Assembly (NCBI GenBank): GCA_024640845.1
Contig: JAHEEE010000004.1
Span: forward strand, 14,567 to 78,566
DNA: 64,000 bases
Direction of reading: 5' to 3'
From: Myxococcales bacterium
Lineage (GTDB): Bacteria > Myxococcota_A > Polyangia > Polyangiales > Houyiibacteriaceae
The position numbers and the translations under genes are program-made. Under the pieces are notes generated by a model. The model saw only the letters and a program-made list of their open reading frames with translations, was not told the origin of the DNA and ran no database searches. Below, one piece after another: positions 28,636 to 56,255 of the stretch (position 1 is the stretch's first letter; each line of letters opens with the position of its first letter).

Positions 28636-28689
28636 ATACGTGTTTCCAACAATATTGCGATTGACAGGTGTTCTCAGGCCCGCGGAGGG

Positions 28690-28732: not shown

Positions 28733-28786
28733 CCACCCCTCCTCAACACCAGCCCTGTCGCTGAAGATCGGATAAATAGGAGGACG

Positions 28787-29221
28787 ATGTCTCAGCTTCT
28801 GACGCGAGAGTTGATGACCCAGCCGGTGATTACGGTCGGGCCAATGAGCCCTCTTCGTGAAGTGATCAACCTCATGGAGACCCACCGAGTTCGCCACGTA
28901 GCGGTGGTCGAGCCTGATACGGAACGCCTGCTCGGTTTGATTTCGCACCGCGATGTCTTGCGAAGCCAGGAGGGGAGCCTCTCTGGCTCGCCGTCAGAAG
29001 AACAAGTTCACATGAACCGGTGGATCGAAGCACGTTGGGTGATGACGAAAGAAGTGCGCACGGTCTATCCCGAAACACCCGCGCTCGAGGCAGCCCTCAT
29101 GTTGCGGTCACAGGGATATGGATGCGCACCTGTCGTCGAGCATGGTCGCTTGGTTGGCATCTTAACCGAGGCGGATTTCGTGGATTACGCAATTCGAATC
29201 TTGTCTGATCCAGGGGTCTGA
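28787..29221 (+). CDS. CBS-pair domain protein
   Basis: 144 aa with two CBS motifs ('HRVRHVAVV', 'GCAPVVEHGRLVGILTEADF'). An AGGAGG ribosome-binding site lies 5 nt upstream. Confidence 0.85.
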   Translation: MSQLLTRELMTQPVITVGPMSPLREVINLMETHRVRHVAVVEPDTERLLGLISHRDVLRSQEGSLSGSPSEEQVHMNRWIEARWVMTKEVRTVYPETPALEAALMLRSQGYGCAPVVEHGRLVGILTEADFVDYAIRILSDPGV

Positions 29222-29261: not shown

Positions 29262-29277
29262 TGGCACGGTGCTTGCT
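29262..29277 (+). promoter_or_regulatory. Sigma-54 (-24/-12) promoter
   Basis: TGGCACGGTGCTTGCT is a full consensus match. The ATG of the tandem USP lies only 14 nt after the -12 C. Confidence 0.7.
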
Positions 29278-37172: not shown

Positions 37173-38371
37173 GGTCGAGTTCGCTTTTCCGCGGGCGCCA
37201 ACACAGAGAGCTTCAAGTCTTTCATGACGTTCATATAGTGGATAAACGCGTCGTAGGGTCCCTCATAAGGGCTGAAGTAGTCGTGCACCTCGCCGTCTGA
37301 GGCCAATTTGGTCGCCATGTAGTAGAAATGGTCCGATGTCTGCAAGCGTCTCCATAGGGCGAGAAGATGAGAATTGTTGCGACGGCGGACCGCCGGGCCG
37401 ATCGAGTAAACTTCGTTCAGCGCCCGCTGCTGCATGGCGTTACCGCGCCAGGCGCTGATGTCGCGAGCCGCATCGGCCCAGGATACCGTTCGATGGAAGG
37501 GGAGCTCGCCTAGGGCGGGGTAGCGGTCGACCACCTGGCTGGGCGTCTGGATGTCCCAATGGGGGTGGGTGAACAGGAGGTCGGGTAGGTGCTCGAGGAA
37601 ATCGAAAATACCCGTCTCCTTCCACTGGTGCTCACCGAACGTTTCGTAGTCCATGAACAGATTGATGACGTCCCCGACACCGCTATGGCCGTGAACCCAG
37701 CCGGCGAACTTCTCAGCCGTCAATGGATACTCCGCCCAGGCTCGGTTCGAGAAACGAAACGCGATGTCGTCGGAGAGCTTGTAGTTCTTGGCGAGAAGGC
37801 GCATTTCGCGCCCGGCGACCTTGTAGACGAAATTGGGGCTTCGCCAATCCAGGATGTCGTCGGCGCCTTCACAGAGCATCGCGTCAAACCCGAGGTCCGC
37901 GATGAATTGCCCGATTTCGTCGTTGTAGATGAGCTCCGTGTTCCGGAAGATGCGGGGGGTTTGGCCGAACTCCTTCTTCATGAGCTCGATCTGCATGTCG
38001 ATCTGGGCTCTAAATTCGTCCTTGTCGTAGAGCGCGGCAAGGCTGTGATAATACGTCTCGGCGACGAACTCGACAGCCCCGGTTTCGGCGAGACGCACGA
38101 AGCTGTCCATCACCTCGGGCGCGTATTTCTTCATCTGCTCGATGGCGACGCCAGTAAGCGCGTACGAGATGCGAAAGCGACCGTCGGTACGCTCGATCAG
38201 ACGCAGCATCGAGTTGTTCGCTGGTAGGTAGCACTTGTCAGCCACCTTCCGAAGGACTTCGGCGTTGAGCTTGTCGTCGAAATACTCGTGGTCGCGACCG
38301 ACCTGGAGCGCACCGTACGGCCGTAGTCGATACGGCTGGTGCACCTCGAAATAAAAACAAACCGACGGCAT
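37169..38371 (-). CDS. Glycoside hydrolase family 57 (alpha-amylase/branching-enzyme family)
   Basis: Starts 'MPSVCFYFEVHQPYRLRPY' (GH57 region I) and contains 'DYETFGEH'. Its stop overlaps the downstream start by 4 nt. Confidence 0.85.
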   Translation of the reverse strand: MPSVCFYFEVHQPYRLRPYGALQVGRDHEYFDDKLNAEVLRKVADKCYLPANNSMLRLIERTDGRFRISYALTGVAIEQMKKYAPEVMDSFVRLAETGAVEFVAETYYHSLAALYDKDEFRAQIDMQIELMKKEFGQTPRIFRNTELIYNDEIGQFIADLGFDAMLCEGADDILDWRSPNFVYKVAGREMRLLAKNYKLSDDIAFRFSNRAWAEYPLTAEKFAGWVHGHSGVGDVINLFMDYETFGEHQWKETGIFDFLEHLPDLLFTHPHWDIQTPSQVVDRYPALGELPFHRTVSWADAARDISAWRGNAMQQRALNEVYSIGPAVRRRNNSHLLALWRRLQTSDHFYYMATKLASDGEVHDYFSPYEGPYDAFIHYMNVMKDLKLSVLAPAEKRTRP

Positions 38372-38379
38372 GATTCACC

Positions 38380-39864
38380 TCAACCCCGCACGACCGATTC
38401 GTATACCGGCACGAGCTTCTCTGCGGCAGCATCCCAGTGGATGTGCCGAATCTCTTCGCGCGCGCGCTCGACGAGTGTGCGCCGGAGCTCGGGCAGCTCC
38501 AATATCGCCACGATCTGGCTCGCCATCTTGTCGACGTCCCAGAAGTCGACCTTGAGCGCGTTTCGCAGCACCTCGGAAACCCCGGACTGCTTCGACACGA
38601 CGACGGGTCGGTCGTAGCTCATCGCCTCGAGCGGCGCGATGCCGAATGGCTCTGACACCGAGGGCATCACGTACACGTCCGCGGTCGAAAAAGCACGCTC
38701 GATCTCGGCGCCCCGCAGCCACCCAGGGAAGCGAAACGACTCGGTGATTCCGAGGTCTTCGACGAGCGCCTCCATTCGCGGAAGCATGTCGCCAGCCCCC
38801 GCCATGATGAACACCGCGTCGGGCACGTGCTGCAACACGCGTGCGGCAGCTTGGACGAAGTACTCGGGCCCCTTCTGAAACGTCACCCGGCCGAGGAACA
38901 GGACGACCGGACCGGTCGTTCTGCGCTGCTCCTTGTAGGCTTGAACCGTCTCGCGGGCGTAGACGCCATTGTGAACGACCGAGATCTTGCGGAGTGGGGT
39001 CCCGTGTACCTGGTTGATCAGGCTACGCGTGTAGTAGCTGACTGCGATGACCCGAGTCGCATGCTCCAGTCCCAAGCGCTCAATCGACACGATGTCACGA
39101 TCGGCGCCGTGACCTGCGCGGTCGTACTCGAGGCTATGCACATGGACCAATAGAGGCGCGCCGATGCGGTGCGCGATCTCGACGCCCGCCGGGAAGGTCA
39201 TCCAGTCGTGCGCATGCACGAGGTCGTACTTGTTGCCCGCGACGCGCCGTGTAGCCGCCATGGCATACCGACCGACCTCGGCGAAGAGGTTCTCGCCGTA
39301 GTGGGCATCGCTCGGCGCTTCATCTGTGAGGGGCAGATCGCCTCCTGGGACGTGCACGTGCTCGAGGCGAGTGATCGCTGCTGGGGGCCCAGGAAGTGGT
39401 CGGTGCTGCCCTCGGGCCATCATTCTTTCGACGGCCGTGGGGGCGAGCTTGTGGGTCGCTATGAGCTCTTGATACGTCGCTTCGTCGAGGTAGGGCTTGA
39501 GCATCGCCGGGACTCGGATCGTCCGCACTCGGGTCGCCGTGCCTTCGCGGGCTTCGGCTTGGGTGGCCTCGACCGCGGCAATGAAGTTTGGATCCGTCGC
39601 GAGCGCCGGCTCGGCGGCGAGCAGCGCAGCGAAGCGCGCGGGGATATGGGCCGGCGTCTCCACCCGAGTCTCGGGTGCCGGGTCCGCCGAGTCCGCTCCG
39701 AGCAGGTGCATGTGAGGCGCGTCTTCCTCGCCGTAGAGCTTGGGCACGAGAAAGTCGATTTCGATGCCGCGCTTCGCCAACGCAGTGGTCAGGCCTTCGC
39801 ATGCCGTGCCAAGACCGCCGCTGATGTGAGGAGGGTATTCCCAGCCGATCATCAAGATCTTCAT
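38380..39864 (-). CDS. Glycosyltransferase (GT4/GT5-like, glycogen-synthase-like) with internal insertion
   Basis: Starts 'MKILMIGWEYPPHISGGLGTAC' and has the C-terminal motif 'EPFGIAPLEAM'. The start overlaps the upstream stop (ATGA). Confidence 0.8.
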   Translation of the reverse strand: MKILMIGWEYPPHISGGLGTACEGLTTALAKRGIEIDFLVPKLYGEEDAPHMHLLGADSADPAPETRVETPAHIPARFAALLAAEPALATDPNFIAAVEATQAEAREGTATRVRTIRVPAMLKPYLDEATYQELIATHKLAPTAVERMMARGQHRPLPGPPAAITRLEHVHVPGGDLPLTDEAPSDAHYGENLFAEVGRYAMAATRRVAGNKYDLVHAHDWMTFPAGVEIAHRIGAPLLVHVHSLEYDRAGHGADRDIVSIERLGLEHATRVIAVSYYTRSLINQVHGTPLRKISVVHNGVYARETVQAYKEQRRTTGPVVLFLGRVTFQKGPEYFVQAAARVLQHVPDAVFIMAGAGDMLPRMEALVEDLGITESFRFPGWLRGAEIERAFSTADVYVMPSVSEPFGIAPLEAMSYDRPVVVSKQSGVSEVLRNALKVDFWDVDKMASQIVAILELPELRRTLVERAREEIRHIHWDAAAEKLVPVYESVVRG

Positions 39865-41861
39865 GGGCCTGCCATCTTGGCGACGCGGAGCACCTCGGAC
39901 ACGCTCCATGCCTGTGCGGGGGTGCCACCCGGACGGTGAGGTGCGTCTCCATCGAACACCTCGCCGATCTGTCCGATGCAGCCTTCGGTCCGGAGATGTG
40001 CGCTGAGCGCCGCCAATGCGGGCATCATTTCTTCTTTCGCAGCCTCAGAACCTTCGACCGCGGCGACCGCGTCGGCGTACAGCCCCAGCAGCCACGGCCA
40101 GACCGTACCCTGATGGTATGCACGGTCCCGCTCGGTTTGCGCGCCTCGGTAAAACGGTCGGTAATCCGGGTCGTCGGGCGAAAGCGTACGCATCCCTACG
40201 GGGGTCAGGAGCTTGTCGCGCACCGCACGCAGCGCCCGTTGCTTTCGCTCCTTTTGAATCGGAACGCCGGGCAACACCAAAGCCCAAAGCTGGTTCGGTC
40301 GCAGCTTGCCGTCGCCATGATGTCCGTTGTGTGTGTCCGTCAAGAAGCCCTGATCATGAAGCCAGAACTTTTCCTCGAAGTGATCGGAGAGTTTCTTCGC
40401 CGTTTCGCTCCACGTTTCGATGAATTCCGGGCGGAGCTTTTTGGCCCAGCGGAGAGCGGAAAGAAGGCCCGAGAGCCACAGCGCGTTGAGGTCGACGGCG
40501 TACCCTTGCCGGGGCGTGACCGCGTGGCCGTCGACGAGCGCATCCATCCAAGTGAGCGCCCACGGCCCCTGCTCGACGAACAAGAACCCCTGTGCGTCGA
40601 TCCGGACGCGTGAATCAGCGCCCGCCGCGATGCTCTCGATCAGATCGAGGCATGCCTCCTGAAGCGGGGCGATTCGCTGGCTTCGTGTACGTTTCGAGAC
40701 CAGCGAAGTCGCGCGAATGAACAGAAGCGACGCGTCGATGGCCTCGCCGTTGGAGGGCACGTCGCCGCTTTGCGGGATGTTGGGGACGAGGCCGTTTTCG
40801 AGACGGCTCGCCAGGGATTCGAGGATATCGAGAGCCTTGCCGACCTCGTCGCGGGCCAAGCAAAGGCCAGGTAGGGCGATCAAGGTGTCGCGCGACCACT
40901 CTCCGAACCAGGGGTAGCCCGCGATGACGCCCGTGCGGCCTCCGTCGAGCTCGACGAGATAAGCATCCGCGGCATCTTCGAGCTCGCGCACGAAGGAACG
41001 ATGAGGTGCGAGGACCGAGCTCAGCACTTGGGGCTCGTGGGAGGTCGCCCGCGTGGTGCCGAGTCGGATGCAAAATGCCCCGTCGTGTTCGAGTCGCAGC
41101 CGGAACTCACCCGGTGTGAACAGGTCCTCGGCGTCGTCGTAGCCGCGCGCGCGCTCCCACTCGTAGTGGACGCCCTCGTACCAATGCCCGTCAGCGTGGA
41201 ATCGACTCGAAGCGCCGTGCATGCTCGCGATCAACGGAGGGACGTTCTTGTACGGATGCATGACGACCCGGAGCGAATCGCCCTGCTCGACCTCGATTTC
41301 GCCGTTCATGAACGAGTTCGCGAAAGTGAGCTTGTGAATCGGGCGACACCGAATCAGTGGGCGGAGCCGAAGGTCGACTGGCTTCTGGAGACCCTCGATC
41401 GAATACCGAATCCAGACCGCATCAGCGTCGTCCTCGAGCCAGAGCTCCCGGGTCACCGTCAGACCGGCGAACTGGTAGGTCCAGCGGGGCAGCGGCTCGA
41501 ATCGGGTGAGGTAGTCGACGCCCGTCGGCTCGACGGTGCTGCCCCAGTCGTAGCTGTGCAACGCGATCTCCTCGTCGGCTCCGACGTCGAACCACTCCTC
41601 GACTTCCGCGACCATGTTGAGTGGCTCACCGACGCCCGGCTCTCGAACTGTCAGAAGGCTGTGATACTTGCGGCGCGGGCAGCGATCGATCGTTCCCATC
41701 GCGAACGAGCCGCCCCGATTCACGCTCAACCACTCCGCGTCCGGGGTCGTCGCTGCGGCGGTGACTTCGGTGGAGTCCTCGGAGCTCCCCGGCTCCCTCG
41801 AAAGAAGACGCAGCCCTGGCGCGCCATCAGAGCGAGCAGGAAACCAACTGGGCAGAATCAC
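39861..41861 (-). CDS. Glycogen debranching enzyme (amylo-alpha-1,6-glucosidase, GDE_N + GDE_C/GH133-like)
   Basis: 666 aa. 'RKYHSLL' marks the N-terminal domain. The C-terminal (alpha/alpha)6 region has 'YPWFGEWSRDT' and 'YHQGTVWPWLLG'. GTG start. Confidence 0.85.
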   Translation of the reverse strand: MILPSWFPARSDGAPGLRLLSREPGSSEDSTEVTAAATTPDAEWLSVNRGGSFAMGTIDRCPRRKYHSLLTVREPGVGEPLNMVAEVEEWFDVGADEEIALHSYDWGSTVEPTGVDYLTRFEPLPRWTYQFAGLTVTRELWLEDDADAVWIRYSIEGLQKPVDLRLRPLIRCRPIHKLTFANSFMNGEIEVEQGDSLRVVMHPYKNVPPLIASMHGASSRFHADGHWYEGVHYEWERARGYDDAEDLFTPGEFRLRLEHDGAFCIRLGTTRATSHEPQVLSSVLAPHRSFVRELEDAADAYLVELDGGRTGVIAGYPWFGEWSRDTLIALPGLCLARDEVGKALDILESLASRLENGLVPNIPQSGDVPSNGEAIDASLLFIRATSLVSKRTRSQRIAPLQEACLDLIESIAAGADSRVRIDAQGFLFVEQGPWALTWMDALVDGHAVTPRQGYAVDLNALWLSGLLSALRWAKKLRPEFIETWSETAKKLSDHFEEKFWLHDQGFLTDTHNGHHGDGKLRPNQLWALVLPGVPIQKERKQRALRAVRDKLLTPVGMRTLSPDDPDYRPFYRGAQTERDRAYHQGTVWPWLLGLYADAVAAVEGSEAAKEEMMPALAALSAHLRTEGCIGQIGEVFDGDAPHRPGGTPAQAWSVSEVLRVAKMAGP

Positions 41862-41921: not shown

Positions 41922-41937
41922 AGCAGGAGGCGTGCCA
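41922..41937 (-). promoter_or_regulatory. Sigma-54 (-24/-12) promoter for the glycogen operon
   Basis: The minus strand reads TGGCACGCCTCCTGCT (perfect -24, -12 CTGCT). It lies about 60 nt upstream of the GTG at 41861. Confidence 0.65.
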
Positions 41938-41999
41938 AAGCCTGGCCTGAAGACCCGGGCCGTTCCGTCACAAACAGACAACATTAACGGTCCCTACGG

Positions 42000-42043
42000 C
42001 GCAATGAATGCGGGTTCAAGCAGTCATCGCGCAACCGGTGCGC
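42000..42043. promoter_or_regulatory. Tandem UAS candidates (CGCA-N5-TGCG x2)
   Basis: CGCAatgaaTGCG (42000-42012) and GCGCAaccggTGCGC (42029-42043) have centres 30 bp apart. They lie 70 and 100 bp upstream of the -24 GG. Confidence 0.6.
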
Positions 42044-42047
42044 CTTT

Positions 42048-43316
42048 CTAGCCACGCGCCTCGTACCACGCTTTCTCCAAGGCCTCCTGGTCATTGGGGT
42101 GCGCGATGGAAATCAGCAATTGCGCTCGCTCGTTGAGTGTCTTGCCGTAAAGGTCCACCGCGCCGTTCTCGGTGATGATGAATTGGACGTGGGCCCGCGT
42201 CGTGACGACCCCGGCACCCGCTCGGAGCGTTGGCACGATTCGGGGGATTCCTTTCGCGGTACGGCTGGTCAGCGCGATGATCGGCTTTCCACCTTCGGAG
42301 GTCATCGCGCCGCGGATGAAATCCATTTGACCGCCGACACCGGAGATCACCCGGTGTCCGATCGAATCGGCACACACCTGACCCGTGAGATCGATCTCTA
42401 TGGCAGAGTTGATCGCTGTCACCTTGGGGTTCCGGTTGATGACGTTGACCCGGTTCACGTAACCGATGTCGTATTGCGCGACCGACGGGTTGTCGTCGAT
42501 GAAGTCGTAGAGGCGCCTCGTGCCGACGACGAAGCCGGATATCGTGCGACCTGGATGGACCTTCTTGAGACTATTGTCGACAGCGCCGCACTCGAGGAGC
42601 GGCAGAAGCCCGTCCGACCACATTTCCGTATGGACGCCGAGATGACGATGGCTCTTCAGCGCCGCCAGCACGGCGTCCGGCACTGCGCCGATCCCCATTT
42701 GGAGAGTCGCCCCGTCCTCGATGAGCTGGGCTGCGTGGTGCCCGATGGCCTTCTCCTCCTCAGTCGGCGGAGCGGGAGATGATTCGGGCAGAGGCTCGTC
42801 GTGCTCGATCAGCCAATCGAGCTCGTCGATGTGAACGAAGCCGTCGCCGTGCACACGGGGCATGTGCGCGTTCACCTGTGCGATGACCACCTTCGCCGAG
42901 TCGACTGCGGCTCGCGCGACGTCGACCGAAACGCCGAGGCTGCAGTAGCCGCGCTTGTCCGGGGGAGAGACCTGCACCAACGCGATATCGAGCGCGCGCC
43001 TCCCGGAGCGGAAAAGAGCCGGGATCTCCGACAGGAAGCAGGGGAGGTAATCGATCCGGTCGCCGTCGAGTTGCCGACGCATGTTGTCCCCCACGAACAG
43101 GTTCGCGACCCGAAACGAGCGCTCGTACTCGGGTCTTGCGTACTCCGCGTCGCCCGACGTGTGGAGGTGGATCAACTCGACGTTTCGGAGCCTGCTTGCT
43201 TCGCCGAGCAGCGCCTGGATCAACGCCAGAGGCGTGGCGGCGCCGCCGTGAACGAACACGCGCTGATTCGAGTTGATGTGATTGACCGCTTCGTCTGCGG
43301 TGCAGAGCTTCGACAT
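42048..43316 (-). CDS. Acetyl-CoA hydrolase/transferase family protein (4-hydroxybutyrate CoA-transferase-like)
   Basis: 422 aa. 'VFVHGGAATP', 'TEMWSDG' and 'GVGGQMDF' are typical of this family. Confidence 0.85.
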   Translation of the reverse strand: MSKLCTADEAVNHINSNQRVFVHGGAATPLALIQALLGEASRLRNVELIHLHTSGDAEYARPEYERSFRVANLFVGDNMRRQLDGDRIDYLPCFLSEIPALFRSGRRALDIALVQVSPPDKRGYCSLGVSVDVARAAVDSAKVVIAQVNAHMPRVHGDGFVHIDELDWLIEHDEPLPESSPAPPTEEEKAIGHHAAQLIEDGATLQMGIGAVPDAVLAALKSHRHLGVHTEMWSDGLLPLLECGAVDNSLKKVHPGRTISGFVVGTRRLYDFIDDNPSVAQYDIGYVNRVNVINRNPKVTAINSAIEIDLTGQVCADSIGHRVISGVGGQMDFIRGAMTSEGGKPIIALTSRTAKGIPRIVPTLRAGAGVVTTRAHVQFIITENGAVDLYGKTLNERAQLLISIAHPNDQEALEKAWYEARG

Positions 43317-43325
43317 GGAAAAAGG

Positions 43326-43619
43326 CTAGTCCTTCGTGCGAGGGGGTTGCGGCTCGGGCTCCGGCTCGAGCTCTCCGGGCGGCGGCTTCGGGCGTCGCTC
43401 CAGGTCGACCTCGAGCACGGGGGGTGGGTTCGGTAGGTTCAGCGGTCCGGAGGTTCGCAGAACGTTGCCTTCCGGCGGGTCGACCTTTCTCTCAGGCTCG
43501 TATTCTTCGGCCTGACCCATCTCCGTGCCCTGGGCGCCTCGAACACGGCCGCTCGCGCAGCCCGCGAGAATGCAGGCGAGGCAGACGCCCTGAACGAATG
43601 TGCGGATGAGCTTGGTCAT
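43326..43619 (-). CDS. Small lipoprotein, Pro/Glu-rich
   Basis: 'MTKLIRTFVQGVCLACILAGCASG' contains a lipobox (LAGC). The start overlaps the upstream stop (ATGA). Confidence 0.55.
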   Translation of the reverse strand: MTKLIRTFVQGVCLACILAGCASGRVRGAQGTEMGQAEEYEPERKVDPPEGNVLRTSGPLNLPNPPPVLEVDLERRPKPPPGELEPEPEPQPPRTKD

Positions 43620-44452
43620 TGGTTGGCCTTTCGCCGCTCGTCGGGCGTTAGCGCGGGCTTGACCTCGAGCATGGTGTGGCACTGGTCGCACGTCGAGAGG
43701 AGTCTGCCGAAGATCTCTGCCTGACCCCAACTCGTCGGATCGTCTTCGAGGAGCTCACCTGGCTTGGGGACGTACTCGTCCTCGTGTGCTTTGCCTTCGA
43801 CCGCGGCGGCAAAGGCCAAGTCGTGCACCTCATAGGCGAGGCGTGTCACACCCGTGTGGCTTTCGTGGTCGGGGTCGTGCCGACCATGAAGGGGCGCCTC
43901 GGCCAGAAGCTCTGCTGCGTTCTGAAACTCGGCTGTGGAGTCTGCCAGGAGGGCTTCCCACATGCGCTCGACGGCCCAGTAGTGGCGGCGCATGTGCATC
44001 TTCAGGTCTTCTCCGTGGGGAGCGGGCTCGAGCTTGATGGGAGGTCCGCGGTCGAGTGCATGGTGACATTGGCCGCAGGCATAAGAGAGCCGGGCAAAGC
44101 CCATGCACGCCTCCTCGAGGTCGCTTGCCTCGCGCACCTGCTCCACGAGCTCTCGGGTGATGCGCGCGTACTCCTTGCCCTGTTCAGGCGTAGGGACGTG
44201 TTCCATGAAGAAAGCGAGCTTGCGCATCGCCTGCTGGGCGACCTCGAGCTCATCCCGGATCAAGGCGTTTCGCGCAACCACTGAGAGGCCGGCATGCTCT
44301 TGCATCACCTTGTCGAAGTTTTCGGGCATGCCCCCGTCGTCCGGCGCCTGCTTCGAGCCGCACTCGCAGCCGCTCGATAACGCCATCGCAAACCCCAAGA
44401 CAATGACCCGCCCGAGCATCTCGGCCCTATCATGCGCCCTCCGCGGGTTCAT
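43616..44452 (-). CDS. Putative dihaem c-type cytochrome lipoprotein
   Basis: Has two CxxCH motifs ('CGQCHH', 'CDQCHT') and an N-terminal signal/lipobox ('LGFAMALSSGC'). The start may be the internal Met at 44419. Confidence 0.55.
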   Translation of the reverse strand: MNPRRAHDRAEMLGRVIVLGFAMALSSGCECGSKQAPDDGGMPENFDKVMQEHAGLSVVARNALIRDELEVAQQAMRKLAFFMEHVPTPEQGKEYARITRELVEQVREASDLEEACMGFARLSYACGQCHHALDRGPPIKLEPAPHGEDLKMHMRRHYWAVERMWEALLADSTAEFQNAAELLAEAPLHGRHDPDHESHTGVTRLAYEVHDLAFAAAVEGKAHEDEYVPKPGELLEDDPTSWGQAEIFGRLLSTCDQCHTMLEVKPALTPDERRKANQ

Positions 44453-44497
44453 TCAAGGAGCCGTGTAGGGGTCTGCGGGTCGTGCGTGGCGCTAGGC

Positions 44498-45394
44498 CTA
44501 CCGGCCTTCGTGCGTGAGCAACAGCGGCACCTGGCTCTCGTGGAGGAGGCGTCGAGCGACGCTTCCGATGAGGAGGCGTTCTATGCCGCTCTTCCCCGTC
44601 GTGCCCGCACAAATGAGCGTTGCGTCGACGTCCTCCGCAATTTGGAGGATCCCCCCGGCGGGGTCGCCGGTCACGAGGTGGGTTTGGGCGTTCTGCGGGT
44701 CCGTCGAGAAGATCTCTTTGGAGTCCGCCTCGAGCATCTCCTGAAGACCGAGGCGAAGGGCCTCCCGACGCTTCTCCGCGGCTTCCCCAACGACGGCGCC
44801 GCGGTCGGTGTACTCGCCCCACACGTCGAGGTAGCTGTGCACCAAGTGAAGGGATCCGCCGAACACGCCATGAATCGCCCGCGCGACTTCGGCTGCTCGC
44901 TTGGCCGGGCCGGAAAAATCGTACGCGATGACGATGGAGGTCGGCGGCTTTTCATGTCCTCCCGGAGGAACTACGAGGATTGGCGTGTGCACGGTCTTGA
45001 TGACGCGCTCGGTGACGCTTCCGTACATGAGCTTCGAAACGCCCGTGCGGCCGTGGGTTCCGACGACGACTAAGTCGACGTCGTGTTCCTTGGCATAGTC
45101 TCGAATGACCTCGTGCACCGTGCCCTCGCGGATCGCCGTAAAAAGCTCGACGCCCGTGTCAGCGATGGTCTTGGCCTGCGCGTCCAGCGCTTCCTGCGAA
45201 TCGTTGAGAATCCGAGTGACGGCTTCCGGGCCTGGGCTGTAGCTCAAGTCCATCAAGAGATACGTCGGAACCACGGGCGTATGCAGGAGGTGTAGCTTTG
45301 CCGACCATCGCTTGGCCAGGTCGACGGCATAATCGACCGCGTGCTGGGCGTTGTCCGAGAAGTCGGTGGGCACGAGGATTTGATTGATCTGCAT
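44498..45394 (-). CDS. Universal stress protein, tandem USP domains
   Basis: Starts 'MQINQILVPTDFSDNAQHAV' and contains 'VDLVVVGTHGRTGV...VHTPILVV'. The second domain has 'TLICAGTTGKSGI...SQVPLLL'. Confidence 0.9.
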   Translation of the reverse strand: MQINQILVPTDFSDNAQHAVDYAVDLAKRWSAKLHLLHTPVVPTYLLMDLSYSPGPEAVTRILNDSQEALDAQAKTIADTGVELFTAIREGTVHEVIRDYAKEHDVDLVVVGTHGRTGVSKLMYGSVTERVIKTVHTPILVVPPGGHEKPPTSIVIAYDFSGPAKRAAEVARAIHGVFGGSLHLVHSYLDVWGEYTDRGAVVGEAAEKRREALRLGLQEMLEADSKEIFSTDPQNAQTHLVTGDPAGGILQIAEDVDATLICAGTTGKSGIERLLIGSVARRLLHESQVPLLLTHEGR

Positions 45395-45429
45395 GTGGCC
45401 TCTCTTGTCTCGTGAAGTCGCTGGCCTCG

Positions 45430-45891
45430 CTAGCCGCCGAAGGTATCATTCGGCATGATGTGATCGTGGAGGAGCTTCTCGTTCACGTATTCCCGCTCCT
45501 CCTCTTCGATGTCCTTGCGCAACATCTGCGCCAGCTTCACCACGCTGGCTTTCAAATCGTCCGATGAGCTCGCCTCGCGAATCTGATCGACCAAGCGGTC
45601 TAGCTCCTGGCGTTGATCGGCGTGCTCTGCGTGAAGGTGGCGGACCCGTTCTGGACCGAAGCCGTCCGCCTCGTTGATGGCGGGTACCATGTGGGCTTCC
45701 TCGAAGTTCATGTGCAGCTCCAAAATCCCGCGGAGCGCATAGGCGGCCCGCTTGACCTGGTCGGCGCCCACCGTGCCATCGCCTAGGTGCGTCACACCGG
45801 TCTCGAGCTCGGACAGCATCTGTTCGATCTCACGGTGCTGACTGAGTACCTTCCGCCGCACTTCGGAGGGCATCAACGGTTCGTCGCTCAT
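45430..45891 (-). CDS. Hemerythrin-like (HHE cation-binding) domain protein
   Basis: His/Glu spacing 'HREIEQ...HMNFEEAHMVP...HAEHADQRQE' is present. GGGAGGA lies 6 nt upstream of the ATG at 45891. The track start at 46014 is an extension. Confidence 0.6.
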   Translation of the reverse strand: MSDEPLMPSEVRRKVLSQHREIEQMLSELETGVTHLGDGTVGADQVKRAAYALRGILELHMNFEEAHMVPAINEADGFGPERVRHLHAEHADQRQELDRLVDQIREASSSDDLKASVVKLAQMLRKDIEEEEREYVNEKLLHDHIMPNDTFGG

Positions 45892-45928
45892 GGGTTCCTC
45901 CCGTTCCTCATCTTCCGCTCGGATGTGA

Positions 45929-45944
45929 TGCAAAGAATGCGCCA
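45929..45944 (-). promoter_or_regulatory. Sigma-54 (-24/-12) promoter for the hemerythrin operon
   Basis: The minus strand reads TGGCGCATTCTTTGCA, with correct spacing and a perfect -12 TTGCA. Confidence 0.65.
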
Positions 45945-45975
45945 AACGTTTAGCAGGATTTCGCTTCGCAGGACA

Positions 45976-46017
45976 CGCAAGTTCTGCGCCGGACTGGAAT
46001 GTTTCGCAGAACATGCG
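45976..46017. promoter_or_regulatory. Tandem UAS candidates between divergent promoters
   Basis: caCGCAagttcTGCGcc (45976-45988) and CGCAgaacaTGCGtg (46005-46017) have centres 29 bp apart. Together they form a larger inverted repeat, ACACGCAAGTTCTGCG-N16-CGCAGAACATGCGTGT. Confidence 0.6.
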
Positions 46018-46059
46018 TGTTTCTCGCTATGCTTTGCAGCCAATACCTGCAACCCAGGT

Positions 46060-46075
46060 TGGCACGAAGCTTGAT
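46060..46075 (+). promoter_or_regulatory. Sigma-54-like promoter candidate (non-canonical -12)
   Basis: TGGCACGAAGCTTGAT has a perfect -24 TGGCACG, but the -12 reads TTGA instead of TTGC. It lies 17 nt upstream of the USP ATG at 46091. Confidence 0.4.
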
Positions 46076-46090
46076 AGCGGAAGGGTAAAC

Positions 46091-46570
46091 ATGGACCAGC
46101 CTCGAACGATTCTCGTCGGTACCGACTTCTCCGACATCTCGGACGAAGCGTTGCGAGCGGCGTCTCTCTACGCCAGGACCTTCAACTCCCGCGTGCTCGT
46201 TACCCATATTTTCGACCCGACTCCCAACGTTCCGCCAGTGGTCTGGTCCCGTCCGGACCTTCTGGAGCGCAGCATCCGCATCGAAATCGAGGATGCCATC
46301 CGCGAAACTCTGACCGGCAAGACCGCGGAGTTGTTGAAGGGGGTCTCCGAGGTCGAGCTCAGCGTGGTTCAGCATCCTTCCCCAGGCCGGGCGCTCGTCG
46401 AGATCGCCGAAGACGAAGAAGTGGATCTCGTCATCCTGGGCTCGCACGGTCGGAGTGGCCTATCGCGGGCCTTCCTCGGCAGCGTCGCCGAGCGAGTCGT
46501 TCGACATGCGCCGTGCCCCGTATTGGTGGTGCGGGGTCGTTGTGACCACGAGCCGAAGCACGGAGAATAG
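46091..46570 (+). CDS. Universal stress protein
   Basis: Starts 'MDQPRTILVGTDFSDISDEAL' and contains 'VDLVILGSHGRSGL...APCPVLVV'. Confidence 0.9.
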   Translation: MDQPRTILVGTDFSDISDEALRAASLYARTFNSRVLVTHIFDPTPNVPPVVWSRPDLLERSIRIEIEDAIRETLTGKTAELLKGVSEVELSVVQHPSPGRALVEIAEDEEVDLVILGSHGRSGLSRAFLGSVAERVVRHAPCPVLVVRGRCDHEPKHGE

Positions 46571-46573
46571 CTA

Positions 46574-46984
46574 GTGTCATTGATCCCACGTTTGGTCGTT
46601 GCGTATGATTTCTCGGACCCGGCGAGGCGGGCCTTCGAGCTCGCGGTATTCATGGGTCGGCAGCTCGGCGCGGATGTCCACGTCGTCACGGTCCTCGACT
46701 CGAAGGAATCGAAGCCAGGCGCGGCCGGCGATGAGCTGGACGACCTCCGGAAGCTCCTCGAGATGCGGACCGCCGGTACAGTCAAGTCGGACGACGTGAA
46801 GCTTCAGTGCCACGCGCTCGCTGGCGAGCCTGCGGATGCGATCGTGGCGATCGCCAAGGAGATCGATGCGCCACTCATCATCTGCGGGACGACCGGCAAG
46901 GGTGCCGTGGCGCGGACACTGCTTGGCAGCGTGTCTCACGAGCTCGTTCACAAGAGCGGCGCAATCGTGATGTCGGTGCCGTAG
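46574..46984 (+). CDS. Universal stress protein
   Basis: GTG start 4 nt after the previous stop. Contains 'LVVAYDFSDPARRAF' and 'APLIICGTTGKGAV...SGAIVMSV'. Confidence 0.85.
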   Translation: MSLIPRLVVAYDFSDPARRAFELAVFMGRQLGADVHVVTVLDSKESKPGAAGDELDDLRKLLEMRTAGTVKSDDVKLQCHALAGEPADAIVAIAKEIDAPLIICGTTGKGAVARTLLGSVSHELVHKSGAIVMSVP

Positions 46985-48994: not shown

Positions 48995-49172
48995 GGGGTA
49001 CCTCCAACTCCTCTTCGAGGGGAATGCGTGCGTTGTGATCCGCCTCGGCTGCGCTCATCCGCATCACGCGAACGACTACGACTAGAAACACGGTGAAAAA
49101 CAGAAGCAGCGCGATGACTGGGTAGAGCAACGCGGGGCTCTGCGCGAAGAACTCTGAAGCAAACCGGCTCAT
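48987..49172 (-). CDS. ccoQ: CcoQ/FixQ-like small membrane subunit
   Basis: 61 aa with a single TM segment ('[20 protein letters not shown]'). It lies between ccoNO and ccoP, with ATGA overlap to the ccoNO stop. Confidence 0.55.
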
Positions 49173-51511
49173 TGCCCTGCCTCCTCTCCTGCCGCAGCGA
49201 GCGCCTCGCCTTCGGGCACTTTGCCCAAACGTTGCAGGTACGCGATCAGCGCGACCAGGCGGCTGTTGACGACCAACTCGCAGCCTTCGATTTCCGCCTC
49301 GCACACTTTCACGCCCGCTTGCTCGGCTAAGCCTGCCGCGATTCCGGCGGCGGCAGTCTGAGCGTCCTGTTCGGACGTTTGAATCTGCTCGGGCTTATAC
49401 GGGACACCGACGTTTCTCAGGGCCCGCATCTTCGCGGCGGTGCCCGAAAAGTCGACGGTCCACGTCGCGAGGTGCGGGTAGGGCGGCATGTTGGAACCAG
49501 GCGAGATCTCGCGAGGGTCGATCATGTGTTTGTAGTGCCAGACATCGGCGTACTTGCCGCCGACACGCGCCAAGTCCGGACCGATGCGGCGAGAGCCCCA
49601 CTGGAACGGATGGTCGAAGATCGAGTCGTCGATCGTAGAAACGGCGCCATAGCGCGCGGTCTCCCAGGTGAACGGTCGAATCATCTGCGAGTGGCAGGTG
49701 TAGCAACCTTCGCTGATGAAGACGTCCCTGCCTTCGAGCTCGAGCGGGGTGTAGGGCACGTTCTTGGTAGTTCGAATCGACTCGGGCACCGAGATGACCA
49801 TCGGGATGATCTCTGCAACGCCGCCGACCAGGATGCCGATCGTTACGAGTACCGTGAAGACGCCTGCACGACCTTCGAGCACGCTGTGCCATGGGATTTT
49901 CTCACTGCCTCGGTCACGAATCATGATGGCGATCGCTGCGACGGCCCACATGATGGCGAAGAGCGCGAGGACCGTGCTGATCAAGCCGTCGAAGAGCACC
50001 ATGCCAAACAGAAGCGCCATCACGATGATGGACGCCATCACCGGTTGGCCGAAGAGGAGCTTCGGCCACGGCACCTCGCGGGTGCGTGGCTCGGTGACGA
50101 CAGCAACCTCGATCTCGCCGTCGACCGCCGCGCCGCTGCGGGCGGTCGCGATGAGGTTCCAGGCCATCAGGATGATCCCCGCGAAGTAGAGGAGCCCGGA
50201 GATGAGACGGGCCCAGTACATCGGTCGAATCGCGAGATAGGTCTCGACGAAGTTCGGGTAGAGCAACCCGCCGGTCTCGCTGACCGCGCGCCACATCAAG
50301 CCTTGCGTGATGCCCGCGACCCACATCGAGATCGCGTAGATAAGAATTCCAACTGTCGCGATCCAGAAGTGGAAGTTAGCGGCCCCACGCGAGTGAAGCT
50401 TCGTTCCGTACAGCCTCGGCACCAGCCAGTAGAACATGCCGGCGGCCATCAGACCGTTCCAGCCCAAGGCGCCGCTGTGCACGTGACCGATGATCCAGTC
50501 CGTGTAGTGTGCGAGGCCACTGACGCTCTTGATTGAAAGCAGCGGGCCCTCGAAGGTGCTCATGCCATAGAAGGTGACGCCTGCCGCGAAGAACTTCAGG
50601 ACTGGGTCGGCGCGGAGCTTGTCCCACGCGCCGCGCAGCGTGAGTAGGCCGTTCAGCATGCCGCCCCAGCTCGGGGCCCACAGCATCAAGCTGAAGACCA
50701 TGCCGAGGCTCTGCGCCCAGTCGGGCAGTGCTGTGTAGAGCAAGTGGTGAGGGCCGGCCCAGATGTAGATGAAGACCAAGCCCCAGAAGTGAACGATCGA
50801 GAGGCGGTACGAGAAGACGGGGCGTTCGGCCGCCTTCGGAAGGAAGTAGTACATGATGCCGAGGATTGGCGTAGTGAGGAAGAAGGCGACGGCATTGTGG
50901 CCGTACCACCATTGGACGAGTGCATCCTGGACGCCGGCGAAGACCGAGTAGCTCTTCAGCATCGTCACCGGGATCTCGAAGCTGTTCACGATGTGGAGGA
51001 CGGCCACCGTGATGATCGTCGCGATGTAGAACCAGATCGCGACGTAAAGGTGCTTCTCGCGCCGTTTCGCGAGGGTCCAGAAAAAGTTCACCGCGAAGAC
51101 GACCCATATCAGGGCGATCGCAATGTCGATCGGCCACTCGAGCTCGGCGTATTCCTTCGAGGTCGTGATGCCGAGCGGAAGAGTGATCGCCGCGGATACG
51201 ATGATGAGCTGCCAACCCCAGAAGTGGATCGAGGACAAGATGTCGGAAGCTAAACGTGCTTTCACCAATCTCTGCGTCGAGTAGTAGACACCCGCAAACA
51301 ACATGTTGCCGACGAACGCGAAGATGACCGCATTGGTGTGCAACGGCCTCAGGCGACCGAACGACAAGAACGGCGGCAAGTTCGCCGGCCAGAACGCCAA
51401 CTGCAGGGCGATGATGATGCCCACCAGCATGCCGACGATGCCGAACAGCACCGACGCCCAAATGAACTGGCGGACGACTTTGTCGTTATAAACGATCCGC
51501 TGAGTTTCCAT
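49169..51511 (-). CDS. ccoNO: Fused cbb3 oxidase subunits I+II (CcoN-CcoO)
   Basis: 780 aa. The N-terminal ~480 aa is a haem-copper oxidase subunit I of cbb3 type. The C-terminal part carries the CcoO haem-c site '[12 protein letters not shown]' after a TM segment. Confidence 0.9.
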
Positions 51512-51686: not shown

Positions 51687-54082
51687 GGGCGCCCTCGTCG
51701 CGACAGCATCATCACCGTATACGCGAGCGTGATGAGTGAGCTGAGCGGCATTAGCACAGCTGCGACCCATGGTTTCATCAAACCCGCCATGGCGATCGAT
51801 ACAGCGACCAGATTGTATGCGATTGCAAACGCGAGTATGCGACGCACCACGTGCGCCAGCGAATCCGAGGCGCGCAAGACTTGCGCCACTGGGTGCAAGC
51901 CTGGGGACACGAAGTAGAAGTCACATCGCGAGGCCATGAACGGTCGATCGACTGCAGGAGTACCCGAACAAGCCGCCTCTCTCATCGCGACTTGGTCGTT
52001 CAAGCCATCGCCCACCAGCAAAGTCCGTGCCGGATCGTGCTCACGCACATACGCGGCCTTTTGTTCAGGGCTCTTCCCGCCGATACACCTGCTCTCGGGC
52101 ATGCCGAGGCTGGCGCCGAGGGTCGTCACACGCTGCTGCCCATCCCCACTGAGGATCGCGAGCTCGTACCCCCGCTGCTCGAGCTTGTCGATTTCGTCGC
52201 GAGCGCCGGGTCGAAGCTGCTCATCGGTGGTGATGCTCGCGAGCACTTTCCCATTCGCAGAGAAGACGACGTCGCCGTCGCTCCTTGCGGGGCCCGCCGC
52301 CCACTCCGGCGCGCCGAGCCGGTAGTCGATGTCGGCCCGCCGGGCCGAGATCCCATAGCCGGTGTGCTCTTCGGCCTCGATCTCGGCGAAGCGCGCGGCG
52401 GGATGCCCTTCGAGCGCGCGCCGAACGGCGACGCTCTTCGGGTGCGCGCTGCGGGCCGCCATGTTGTAGACGACGGCAATCTCCGCGTCCGCGAGGCGTC
52501 TCAACGGGGCCGGATCGACCACCTCGAGGACCCCGGTCGTCAACGTTCCCGTCTTGTCGAACACGATCCGGGTCATCGAGCGGACCCGGTCGAGAAAATC
52601 GCCTACGCGCACGAAGATGCCAAGGCGTCGGAGCTGGGTGAGGACCAGCTCGTACGCGAGCGGAGCGGCGATGCCGAATGCGCAGGGGCAGGTCACCACG
52701 AGGACCGCGGTGCCGACCTCGATTGCGCGGAGCGGCTCGCCGCTTCGCCACCACCAGAAGCCGATCGCGGCGCTCGCCAGCGTAATGACGCCGACGACGT
52801 AATAGCGTGAGAGCCGCGACCACCACTCGGACGCCAAGGGTCCGTCTCCTTTGTTCGCCGGGTCACTCCCGAGGAGGCCCACCAATGACGAAGCCGCAAA
52901 GTCGCTCAATGCAACCCCGGAGAACGCGCGTTCGCCGACGTTGAAAGCGCCGGCTGGGATGGTGTCGCCCCCCTCGAATCTTCGCGGTCGGCTCTCTCCG
53001 TCGATCCAGTCGAGCGAGCAGCGCACCGTGTCGTCGACGACCCGAAGATCGACGGGCACGAGATCCCCGGGTGCGATCAGCAAGCGATCCCCATTGCGGA
53101 TTCCGATGCAATGCACGATGCGAACGACGCCGTCCTTCACCTCGCGCGTGAGCAGGCTTTCGGTGCCGTCATCCGCGAGCAGCTGGGCGCGGTTGCGTTC
53201 GAGCATGCGCTGCTGGAGCCAACGGCCGACCAACATCAGCGCGACGAACACGGTCAGCGTGTCGATGTAGGCCGCTTCTCCCGAAGCGAAGAAGAACGAC
53301 CACGTCGAGCCGATGAAGGCGAGAACGATGCCGAGCGCGATGGGCACGTCGAGGTGCAGGATGCCCCGCCGAACTGCACGCGCGGCCGAGCCGATGAAGA
53401 CCGACCCGCCCACCAGCACCGCGAGCACGCCGGCGGCATAGCTCAAGTCGTTGAGGATCTCGTAGACGGGCCCCTCGCGAAGGCCGAGATAGATTGCGGC
53501 GGCGAACAGCATGACGTTCATGGCGAGCGCGGCGCAGATGCCGACGCGCAACAGAAGGTCGTCAGAAGGGCGCGCGCCTGTCGAACGGGCGGGGCCGAGC
53601 AGGTAGCCAAGGCCCTCGACCGAATCGACCCAATCGGAGAGCGGGAACTCTGGCGGGATGCGGAGCTCGATGCGGCCGAGCGCCGGGTTGATGGTCATGA
53701 GCCCGGCCTGCGCCCCCCCTTGGCGGCGAAACAGCTCCTCGACGAGCCAAACGCAGGCTGCGCAGTGGATCCCCTGGATGTCCAGCTCGACGCGAGAGAG
53801 ACCTCGTTCGTGGGCCCGCGCCTCCTCGATCAGCTCGAGCCACTTGTGATCGATGTGACGCGCATCGAGATCGGCAGGCGGAAGACCGGGGCCACTTCGC
53901 AGGTCGTAGTAGCGCGTCAGCCCGGCTTTGTTGAGGATGGCGTGCACCGCCCGGCACCCGCGGCAGCAGTACGGGGCGAATGCGTCGCTGACCAGCGGTT
54001 GCGCGCAGTGCACACAACGCGAGCCGGCGTGGAGTGGTTCCCCGAGCGTGGTCTCACAGACAGCGGGTTGAGGAGCGGTCAC
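51674..54082 (-). CDS. ccoI: Copper-translocating P1B-type ATPase (CcoI/FixI-like)
   Basis: Contains 'DKTGTLT', a 'CPC' TM motif, an N-terminal Cys-rich region, and an HMA-like motif 'HCAACV'. It sits within the cco cluster. Confidence 0.9.
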   Translation of the reverse strand: MTAPQPAVCETTLGEPLHAGSRCVHCAQPLVSDAFAPYCCRGCRAVHAILNKAGLTRYYDLRSGPGLPPADLDARHIDHKWLELIEEARAHERGLSRVELDIQGIHCAACVWLVEELFRRQGGAQAGLMTINPALGRIELRIPPEFPLSDWVDSVEGLGYLLGPARSTGARPSDDLLLRVGICAALAMNVMLFAAAIYLGLREGPVYEILNDLSYAAGVLAVLVGGSVFIGSAARAVRRGILHLDVPIALGIVLAFIGSTWSFFFASGEAAYIDTLTVFVALMLVGRWLQQRMLERNRAQLLADDGTESLLTREVKDGVVRIVHCIGIRNGDRLLIAPGDLVPVDLRVVDDTVRCSLDWIDGESRPRRFEGGDTIPAGAFNVGERAFSGVALSDFAASSLVGLLGSDPANKGDGPLASEWWSRLSRYYVVGVITLASAAIGFWWWRSGEPLRAIEVGTAVLVVTCPCAFGIAAPLAYELVLTQLRRLGIFVRVGDFLDRVRSMTRIVFDKTGTLTTGVLEVVDPAPLRRLADAEIAVVYNMAARSAHPKSVAVRRALEGHPAARFAEIEAEEHTGYGISARRADIDYRLGAPEWAAGPARSDGDVVFSANGKVLASITTDEQLRPGARDEIDKLEQRGYELAILSGDGQQRVTTLGASLGMPESRCIGGKSPEQKAAYVREHDPARTLLVGDGLNDQVAMREAACSGTPAVDRPFMASRCDFYFVSPGLHPVAQVLRASDSLAHVVRRILAFAIAYNLVAVSIAMAGLMKPWVAAVLMPLSSLITLAYTVMMLSRRGRPWRS

Positions 54083-54853: not shown

Positions 54854-54869
54854 CGCAACCCATATGCCA
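54854..54869 (-). promoter_or_regulatory. Sigma-54 (-24/-12) promoter for the cco operon
   Basis: The minus strand reads TGGCATATGGGTTGCG (TGGCAT-N5-TTGC). It lies 38 nt upstream of the ATG at 54816. Confidence 0.65.
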
Positions 54870-54900
54870 CGGGTTCTTGGGTCTCCCTTATACTCGAAGA

Positions 54901-54913
54901 CGCATATTTTGCG
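54901..54913. promoter_or_regulatory. UAS candidate CGCA-N5-TGCG
   Basis: gaCGCAtatttTGCGcg, centred 39 bp upstream of the minus-strand -24 GG, in a divergent intergenic region. Confidence 0.55.
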
Positions 54914-55841: not shown

Positions 55842-56255
55842 GTGCTGGTAAAAGACATCATGACCGAAAACCCCGTGACCGCGACGGAGCTCATGACCGT
55901 AGCTGAGGCCCTCGGGTTGTTGTACGAGCTCGATGTTCGCCACCTCCCGGTGGTCCGCGGAAGCGAGCTCGCTGGAATCGTGAGCGACCGTGACCTTCGT
56001 GGCTTCACCGCGCCGAGCGAAGACGAGGCGATCGAAGCCATCGAGAGGGCACGAAGCTCGAACGTCGGCAACTTCATGAACACCGATCCCATTCGCGTCG
56101 ATCCGGAGACCAACGTTCGGGAGATCGTAGAGCTCATGCTCGTGCATCGCGTTGGCGCGATTCCCGTGTGCGACCTCGACACGGGCGACCTGCTCGGCAT
56201 CGTGAGCTATATCGACGTGTTGCGAGCGCTGCAGGAGACACTGGGACAGGCGTGA
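55842..56255 (+). CDS. CBS-pair domain protein
   Basis: GTG start preceded by AGGAG (55831-55835). Contains 'DVRHLPVV' and 'HRVGAIPVCD'. Confidence 0.8.
   Translation: MLVKDIMTENPVTATELMTVAEALGLLYELDVRHLPVVRGSELAGIVSDRDLRGFTAPSEDEAIEAIERARSSNVGNFMNTDPIRVDPETNVREIVELMLVHRVGAIPVCDLDTGDLLGIVSYIDVLRALQETLGQA

Follow-up and report, generated by a model that had tools for sequence, protein, structure and literature searches.

A putative bidirectional sigma-54 enhancer-promoter module of the NmpR type between the hemerythrin and stress-protein operons of an uncultured Polyangiales-type myxobacterium

Introduction

Can a single pair of activator-binding sites serve two sigma-54 promoters that face away from each other? 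This question is raised by a control region of ~150 bp (45929-46075) in a 64,000-nt stretch of contig JAHEEE010000004.1 (hereafter, the window), where it lies between a hemerythrin operon and a universal stress protein (USP) operon of an uncultured Polyangiales-type myxobacterium. An earlier note on this DNA, made from the sequence alone, had described two back-to-back -24/-12 elements in this region with a pair of palindromes between them. It had proposed that an activator bound to the palindromes is common to both promoters, while doubting that the plus-strand promoter is a genuine one.

A precedent for such palindromes exists in Myxococcus xanthus, in which the NtrC-like regulator NmpR was found, by electrophoretic mobility shift assay, site mutation and lacZ reporters, to bind the dyad GCGCA-N5-TGCGC (McAllister et al. 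2025, J Bacteriol 207:e00280-24; PMC11841059). The NmpR-bound promoters carry two such sites, mostly with a gap of 14-15 bp and all perfect at GCA-N5-TGC. Hypoxia induces expression of the NmpR targets, for which the sigma-54 site is needed; of the two NmpR sites, the proximal one (S2) is essential, and without the distal one (S1) expression drops ~two-fold (PMC11841059). The regulon comprises the CBS-protein/nmpR operon, the protoglobin-kinase operon nmpU-T-S, a USP gene, hemN-hemerythrin, and a P-type ATPase with a cbb3 oxidase (PMC11841059).

Here we provide evidence that the region in the window is, with a probability of about 0.7, a sigma-54 enhancer-promoter module that acts in both directions and belongs to the NmpR oxygen-limitation regulon.

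Results

Two NmpR-type palindromes lie between outward-facing sigma-54-type elements

When checked against the sequence, all the elements described in the earlier note were found where it had placed them: TGGCGCATTCTTTGCA is the minus-strand reading of 45929-45944, the palindrome cores CGCAAGTTCTGCG and CGCAGAACATGCG occupy 45976-45988 and 46005-46017, respectively, and TGGCACGAAGCTTGAT is the plus-strand reading of 46060-46075 (the full extents are given in Table 1). On the hemerythrin side, the -24 GG was 39.5 and 68.5 bp from the two site centres, and on the USP side it was 50.5 and 79.5 bp from them, in agreement with the 39/68 and 50/79 bp originally given. A repeat search likewise recovered the inverted repeat that the palindromes had been said to form, with two arms of 16 nt each (45973-45988 and 46005-46020, 94% complementary) and 16 nt between them.

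This three-element arrangement is real and far from chance. Within the window, CGCA-N5-TGCG occurs 13 times where 4.0 are expected (a count reached in 0 of 100 shuffles), pairs of GCA-N5-TGC at 28-31 bp occur four times where 0.035 are expected (at most one in 200 randomisations), and the sigma-54 consensus TGGCAC-N5-TTGCW, scored at >=10/11 positions, occurs seven times where 1.05 are expected (at most four in 100 randomisations). Exact matches to TGGC-N7-TTGCW number three, and every one of them is directly upstream of a gene.

Judged as sequences, both palindromes conform to published NmpR sites in every respect by which the latter were recognized (PMC11841059). A published site has a perfect core and up to two deviations elsewhere in the dyad; site A, the one closer to the hemerythrin gene, has one deviation and site B has two. 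The gap between them (45990-46003) is 14 bp, where 14-15 bp is the rule, and a sigma-54-type promoter that faces a gene is found within ~100 bp in each direction, TGGCGCATTCTTTGCA at 39.5 bp from site A and TGGCACGAAGCTTGAT at 50.5 bp from site B. Hence the same two sites have opposite positions with respect to the two promoters: site A is proximal (S2) for the hemerythrin promoter, P(hemerythrin), and distal (S1) for the USP promoter, P(USP), while site B is proximal (S2) for P(USP) and distal (S1) for P(hemerythrin). No third NmpR site was found 29 bp beyond either of them.

Table 1. Positions of the control elements, genes and related control regions in the window
Feature	Position	Strand	Sequence or basis	Remarks
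P(hemerythrin)	45929-45944	minus	TGGCGCATTCTTTGCA	10/11 consensus positions; canonical sigma-54 promoter
Block Y	45949-45963	minus (as read)	GAAATCCTGCTAAAC	Between site A and the hemerythrin -24; mean conservation 0.93 (flanks 0.65-0.69)
Site A	45975-45989		ACGCA-AGTTC-TGCGC	9/10 specified consensus positions, core GCA-N5-TGC perfect; mean conservation 0.95
Site B	46004-46018		TCGCA-GAACA-TGCGT	8/10 specified consensus positions, core GCA-N5-TGC perfect; mean conservation 0.91
Block X	46022-46034	plus (as read)	TCTCGCTATGCTT	Includes TATGCT; mean conservation 0.90
P(USP)	46060-46076	plus	TGGCACGAAGCTTGATA	Sigma-54-type; -12 is TTGAT, with A for the expected C
Putative hemerythrin operon, whole	42048-45891	minus	Pfam	Gene order kept in nearly all of L001-L041
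Hemerythrin gene	45430-45891	minus	Pfam	ATG at 45891, GGAGGAA before ATG
Tandem USP gene	44498-45394	minus	Pfam	Putative hemerythrin operon
278-aa CxxCH lipoprotein-like protein	43616-44452	minus		Putative hemerythrin operon
Acetyl-CoA hydrolase/transferase	42048-43316	minus	Pfam	Putative hemerythrin operon
USP-USP operon	46091-46570 and 46574-46984	plus	Pfam	Divergent partner of hemerythrin in 39 loci
NmpR-like NtrC-family response regulator	25716-27164	minus	Pfam REC, sigma-54 AAA+ and HTH_8	Candidate trans-acting factor
Protoglobin-HisKA-HATPase kinase	24491-25708	plus	Pfam	NmpU/AfGcHK-like haem sensor; convergent with the regulator gene
USP/protoglobin-kinase operon control	23869-23971	plus	Promoter TGGCACGCACTTTGCT, 23956-23971	Sites at 23869 and 23898 (second degenerate)
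WS/DGAT/activator operon control	28620-28733	minus	Promoter GGGCTCGCATCTTGCT, 28620-28635	Sites at 28691 and 28721 (30 bp apart)
Glycogen-metabolism operon control	41922-42043	minus	Promoter TGGCACGCCTCCTGCT, 41922-41937; downstream genes by Pfam	Sites at 42001 and 42031
Membrane protein/P-type ATPase/ccoS/cbb3 oxidase operon control	54854-54913	minus	Site CGCATATTTTGCG, 54901-54913; promoter TGGCATATGGGTTGCG, 54854-54869	

The sites and the hemerythrin promoter are conserved across orthologous regions

We used the hemerythrin protein to retrieve 41 loci from metagenome-assembled genomes of Polyangiales, Sandaracinaceae and 'Myxococcales' (67-90% amino-acid identity), and aligned the 260 nt that precede this gene in the window and in 39 of these loci, giving the 40 regions to which the counts below refer. 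The gene order was the same in essentially all 41 loci, running from CcoP-CcoG and a convergent USPb-USPa pair to the divergent hemerythrin, tandem USP, lipoprotein-like protein and acetyl-CoA hydrolase genes. Upstream of the hemerythrin gene, six conserved islands stood out among drifting spacers, namely the palindromes, the promoter-like elements on either side of them, and two more blocks, which we termed X and Y. The mean top-base frequency was 0.90-0.95 in the islands compared to 0.60-0.75 in the intervening spacers.

The geometry of the region was conserved as well. Sites A and B were 29 bp apart, start to start, in all 37 regions in which both were found, and in 34 of these 37 the hemerythrin GG was 39.5 bp away from the centre of site A; the distance from the centre of site B to the USP GG was 49.5-52.5 bp among the aligned regions. 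P(hemerythrin) itself conforms to the GG/GC rule, with 10 bp between the doublets in TGGCAC-N5-TTGCW, and TGGC-N7-TTGCA was present in 40/40 regions around a spacer that varied, which is the classic sigma-54 pattern. Transcription from this promoter is predicted to start near 45918, producing a leader of ~27 nt that contains the Shine-Dalgarno sequence GGAGGAA.

As for the two blocks, nothing resembling block Y was seen at the other regulon promoters in the window, and block X could be the -10 of a second, sigma-70-type USP promoter. Comparison by eye of both blocks, and of the TATCAAGCTT segment, with the E. coli consensus for integration host factor (IHF), WATCAANNNNTTR, gave no convincing match.

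The USP-side element is probably a sigma-54-type promoter

The earlier note had remarked that the plus-strand -12 reads GA instead of the near-invariant GC, and so considered that this promoter may be weak, strongly activator-dependent or not real. The GA proved to be a fixed feature: the element was found in 38 of the 40 regions, 31 of which share an identical 16-mer, and A occupies -12 in all 38, the window included. The element thus departs from the strict GG/GC consensus, its -24 half TGGCACG being perfect and its -12 doublet being GA, and this lowers the claim that it is a canonical member of the class. It does not lower the claim that it works as a sigma-54 promoter, for which spacing, position and recurrence are what count.

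With respect to spacing, the gap between P(USP) and the USP ATG was 12-17 nt in 36/38 regions, and transcription in the window is predicted to start near 46086, ~5 nt before the ATG at 46091. The distance to the activator sites also follows a pattern. In related loci, the distances from the proximal site centre to the GG fall into classes of 26.5-28.5, 37.5-42.5 and 49.5-50.5 bp, in steps of about one helical turn, and the hemerythrin (39.5 bp) and USP (50.5 bp) promoters use the two commonest of these classes, the longer of which was also found in L051, L054, L055, L072 and L083.

The peculiarities of P(USP) recur elsewhere in the family. Variants of the GA type at -12 (TTGAT/TTGAA) were found at two other such promoters, in L056 and L045, and most sigma-54-like promoters below a site pair in the related loci (L045-L084) are followed by a start codon after 12-18 nt. 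The same short gap was seen at consensus sigma-54 promoters, both in the window, where the promoters at 29262 and 28620 sit 12 and 16 nt before their ATG, respectively, and in L057, L072 and L083. On account of this conservation, the held ATG gap, the recurrent site distance and the family-wide oddities, we rate P(USP) as probably a functional sigma-54-type promoter. The suspicion that it is not real is thereby largely answered, through its retention in 38/40 regions, its 50.5-bp spacing and the recurrence of GA; the observation that its -12 is non-consensus stands.

Two other readings of the sequence around P(USP) were rejected. A -24/-12 reading of CTTTGCA (46033-46038) lacks a GG at the required distance, and its TTGCA is not conserved in the orthologs; an FNR/FixK-type reading of TTGAT lacks the second half-site.

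In two loci, L014 and L031, the TATCAAG segment is partially duplicated just upstream of the USP start codon (CTCTCAAGTCAC and CCTATCAAGG inserts), extending the promoter-ATG gap to 26-27 nt and providing natural variants on whether a short gap matters.

A candidate activator, a haem-sensor kinase and further promoters of the same design lie in the window

The window also encodes an NmpR-like regulator, whose gene (25716-27164) is downstream of a WS/DGAT gene in the same operon and adjacent to that of a protoglobin kinase. The synteny of kinase and regulator is kept in L042-L044 and L047, and the close regulator orthologs of L042-L044 (87-93% identity) keep the synteny together with the sites and promoters. 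We assessed how far the palindrome tracks this activator in 80 metagenome loci: where the activator is 54-65% identical to that of the window, there are 21 GCA-N5-TGC pairs in 250 kb, compared to 2 in 327 kb where it is <54% identical. The pairs in the 54-65% loci are typically just upstream of activator, USP or kinase genes. One relative at 61% lies in an nmpR/nmpS/nmpU-like locus, L083, which encodes two protoglobin kinases and a REC-PAS-HisKA hybrid kinase resembling NmpS. The domains of the activator, the adjacent kinase and the tracking of the motif strongly suggest that the window activator is orthologous to M. xanthus NmpR (MXAN_4240).

The design seen in the control region recurs at other promoters of the window (Table 1). 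A sigma-54-like promoter lies downstream of three of its four site pairs, and likewise of the half-degenerate pair at 23869/23898 and of the lone site at 54901; the pairs are spaced 29-30 bp. L042 and L043 share the sites and promoter of the USP/protoglobin-kinase operon, and L042 and L044 share those of the WS/DGAT/activator operon, whose ATG is at 28603. The oxidase operon has one clear site, at a site-to-GG distance of 39.5 bp. By Pfam and open reading frames (ORFs), the gene set of the window matches the M. xanthus regulon in containing hemerythrin, USP, a CBS protein, a P-type ATPase with a cbb3 oxidase, a protoglobin kinase and the regulator itself. Altogether, the window looks like a hub of an NmpR-type regulon.

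Further observations in the window

The fourth perfect pair, ACGCACCACGTGCGCC and GCGCAAGACTTGCGCC (51844-51886; starts at 51844 and 51874, 30 bp apart), is inside the 3' end of fixI/ccoI and ~150 bp upstream of ccoS and a ccoNO fusion gene. Downstream of this pair, near 51735 on the minus strand, is a weak GG-N10-GC candidate, GGGTCGCAGCTGTGCT, and the two may together constitute an internal promoter for the oxidase genes. CcoN and CcoO are apparently fused in one ORF of 780 aa (49169-51511), as read from the translation.

Upstream of the CBS gene, L044 (reverse complement 3130-3340) has a good sigma-54 promoter, TGGCACGAAAGATGCT; at the aligned positions, the window (28733-28787) reads TGTCGCTGAAGATCGG and L042 reads TCGCACAGAAGATGGG. 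From these sequences, a CBS-side promoter seems to have been gained or lost within the lineage, and the 28691/28721 pair may therefore act both ways in some genomes.

A perfect-consensus promoter at 29262-29277 precedes a tandem USP gene, and the window contains at least six genes with USP domains. The intervals 27176-28603, 57600-59690, 32919-41861 and 56168-57565 contain two WS/DGAT (wax ester/triacylglycerol synthase) genes, CBS-domain proteins, and a large glycogen synthase/phosphorylase fusion along with GH57 and debranching enzymes. A single CGCAAGACATGCG site (12365-12377) precedes, in intergenic DNA, a metallo-beta-lactamase-fold gene (11422-12078, minus); we found neither a partner for it nor a sigma-54-like promoter, and it may be a chance match.

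Discussion

Having described the elements and their conservation, we turn to how the region would operate. Dimers of the regulator encoded at 25716-27164 would bind sites A and B and, when phosphorylated, would assemble an AAA+ ring; by analogy with M. xanthus, phosphorylation would take place upon falling oxygen, via the adjacent protoglobin kinase pathway. The ring would then remodel the sigma-54 RNA polymerase closed complexes waiting at the two outward-facing promoters, both of which would be RpoN-dependent. P(hemerythrin) would drive the hemerythrin, tandem USP, CxxCH lipoprotein-like and acetyl-CoA hydrolase/transferase genes, and P(USP) the two USP genes. Given the behaviour of S1 and S2 in M. 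xanthus and the bidirectional arrangement found here, mutations in site A and site B are predicted to act reciprocally on the two operons.

Several points weigh against such a two-way module. P(USP) has A in place of the near-invariant C at -12, its spacer AAGC is conserved like the recognition elements themselves, which is unusual for sigma-54 and hints at an extra constraint, and a Shine-Dalgarno-like GAAGGG is upstream of the predicted start. Two regions, L016 and L039, are without the P(USP) element, yet they keep the USP gene and block X. Blocks X and Y, for their part, are conserved like promoters and sites, yet match no motif checked. One ring may also be unable to serve two promoters simultaneously. 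On the side of the activator, the protein is a probable rather than an established NmpR ortholog, and no NmpS-like hybrid kinase or NmpT was found among the Pfam-scanned ORFs of the window, though other parts of the genome may encode them; how oxygen would be signalled to the regulator, and hence the sign of the response, is thus uncertain, while the DNA element is unaffected.

Most of the points concerning P(USP) would fit a one-way enhancer, in which the palindromes and the minus-strand promoter serve the hemerythrin operon only and the USP genes are transcribed from a sigma-70-type promoter with TATGCT (46028-46033) as its -10. TGGCACGAAGCTTGATA would then be part of the 5' leader, as a non-productive docking site of the sigma-54 holoenzyme (a roadblock or repressor) or as the site of another protein. 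Such a promoter would account for the presence of block X in 40/40 regions, including L016 and L039, where the USP ATG closely follows the block (within ~20 nt), and for the Shine-Dalgarno-like GAAGGG/GGGG 6-9 nt before the USP ATG in most orthologs, which is usable only from a start further upstream; an A at -12 with an invariant spacer is, moreover, unusual for a working sigma-54 promoter. However, a sigma-70 scan of 45400-46600 found no promoter-like site, and any -35 region there would be a poor one. An element that merely lay in the leader would need neither the ATG gap of 12-17 nt in 36/38 regions nor the recurrent distance to site B, and both the short ATG gap and the GA variants are found at other promoters of this kind, the former at consensus ones (window 29262; L057, L072, L083). 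Nor did we find a conserved RNA structure upstream of the USP genes: RNAalifold on 36 regions gave -0.9 kcal/mol compared to -0.13 +/- 0.36 for column shuffles, and an Rfam scan gave no match at E <= 1. We therefore regard one-way operation as unlikely.

It is also conceivable that the dyads are bound by another regulator with the same CGCA-N5-TGCG specificity, be it a repressor or a different enhancer-binding protein. Myxobacteria encode many NtrC-like activators, and both the NmpR orthology of the window activator and its binding to these sites are deduced. Yet the motif tracks this particular activator family in the metagenome loci, it is found upstream of the activator's own operon and that of the partner kinase, in the window as in L042-L044, and the site spacing and the target gene set match those of NmpR, making the involvement of another regulator improbable. 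The claim that the palindrome pair is the binding site of an activator common to both divergent promoters is supported by the match to the published NmpR enhancer consensus, by an NmpR-like activator gene in the same window and by the classic sigma-54 conservation of the minus-strand promoter.

Lastly, the 16-nt inverted repeat could be thought to act as a cruciform, or as a hairpin terminator or attenuator in a read-through transcript, given that its single strand folds at -16.6 kcal/mol (z-score -3.9 vs shuffles), but we reject this highly improbable reading because the arms do not covary (84.6% of cells pair vs 84.2% with shuffled partners among 39 aligned sequences, with the covariation score reached by 43/500 shuffles), CGCA...TGCG, also the NmpR consensus as published, is retained by each arm on its own, the motif recurs as non-complementary pairs at other promoters, transcription is not expected between divergent promoters, and a terminator scan of 45400-46600 found no terminator-like site.

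Divergent sigma-54 promoter pairs under one activator are known already, as is the NmpR-type enhancer; what is new here is the lineage and the expanded target set. Two further, modest novelties are the fixed non-consensus A at -12 and the promoter-ATG geometry. A gap of 12-18 nt between promoter and start codon predicts mRNAs that are leaderless or have a leader of 1-6 nt, and we tentatively propose that NmpR-family regulons have a dedicated geometry, with transcription starting 1-6 nt before the start codon or on it, yielding leaderless or near-leaderless mRNAs of USP and low-oxygen genes; the idea is somewhat less probable than its opposite. P(USP), with its invariant TGGCACGAAGCTTGATA and the A at -12, is a possible specialised sub-type of this geometry, in which a weakened -12 'lock' would alter basal expression or sensitivity to the activator. 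Limited literature searches found no description of sigma-54-driven leaderless transcripts. If true, the proposal would tie sigma-54 activation to leaderless translation as a way of expressing genes under stress, for which the fixed -12 base and the very short promoter-ATG distances offer a testable lead.

To summarize, these observations would extend the NmpR regulon from Myxococcus to uncultured Polyangiales/Sandaracinaceae, lineages that are common in soils and sediments, and predict a larger set of targets, comprising several USPs, hemerythrin, WS/DGAT lipid storage, glycogen metabolism and a cbb3 oxidase. The compact and strongly conserved two-way module would also serve as a clean test bed for how two promoters share one enhancer-bound AAA+ ring.

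Comparison with known systems

The closest known system is NmpRSTU of M. xanthus. Both have a dyad whose GCA-N5-TGC core is invariant, a pair of sites separated by 14-15 bp, a downstream sigma-54 promoter and an NtrC-like regulator with a protoglobin histidine kinase; as in M. xanthus, the operons of regulator and kinase appear, from their upstream sequences, to be autoregulated, and the targets include hemerythrin, USP, a CBS protein, and a P-type ATPase with a cbb3 oxidase. Unlike in M. xanthus, one site pair is here flanked by two outward-facing sigma-54-type promoters, of which one carries A at -12, genes for NmpS and NmpT are not near the regulator, and the host is an uncultured Polyangiales-type lineage. 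The regulon also appears larger, with WS/DGAT, glycogen genes, several USPs and acetyl-CoA hydrolase. The published search for NmpR sites demanded a single orientation for sites, promoter and gene, and bidirectional use is not mentioned (PMC11841059).

Divergent sigma-54 promoters under a single activator are found in zraP/zraSR of E. coli and Salmonella, where the activator is ZraR (PMC4987338), and in orp1/orp2 of Desulfovibrio vulgaris, which depend on DVU2106 and IHF and have IHF sites between the activator sites and the promoters (PMC3897727). The region described here shares with both the back-to-back sigma-54 promoters that flank the sites of one activator, an architecture that is present and conserved here at the sequence level, and differs from both in activator family, signal and target genes. 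It further differs from orp in having no recognisable IHF site; the conserved blocks X and Y are at comparable positions.

At glnAp2, NtrC binds sites at about -108 and -140 and acts in one direction. Common to the two systems are two dyad sites for response-regulator dimers and, by analogy, a route in which phosphorylation would lead to an AAA+ ring acting on the sigma-54 closed complex. Here, the predicted starts are instead ~64 and 75 bp downstream of the proximal sites, which would serve two directions.

Finally, the gene set is reminiscent of the DosR/DevR dormancy regulon of M. tuberculosis, which is likewise a USP-rich, hypoxia-linked set with a WS/DGAT-type triacylglycerol synthase and is under the control of haem-sensor kinases; PMC11841059 also cites it as a comparison. 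DosR is a NarL-type activator of sigma-70 promoters that recognizes a different DNA motif, and the likeness is one of gene set only, not of mechanism or ancestry.

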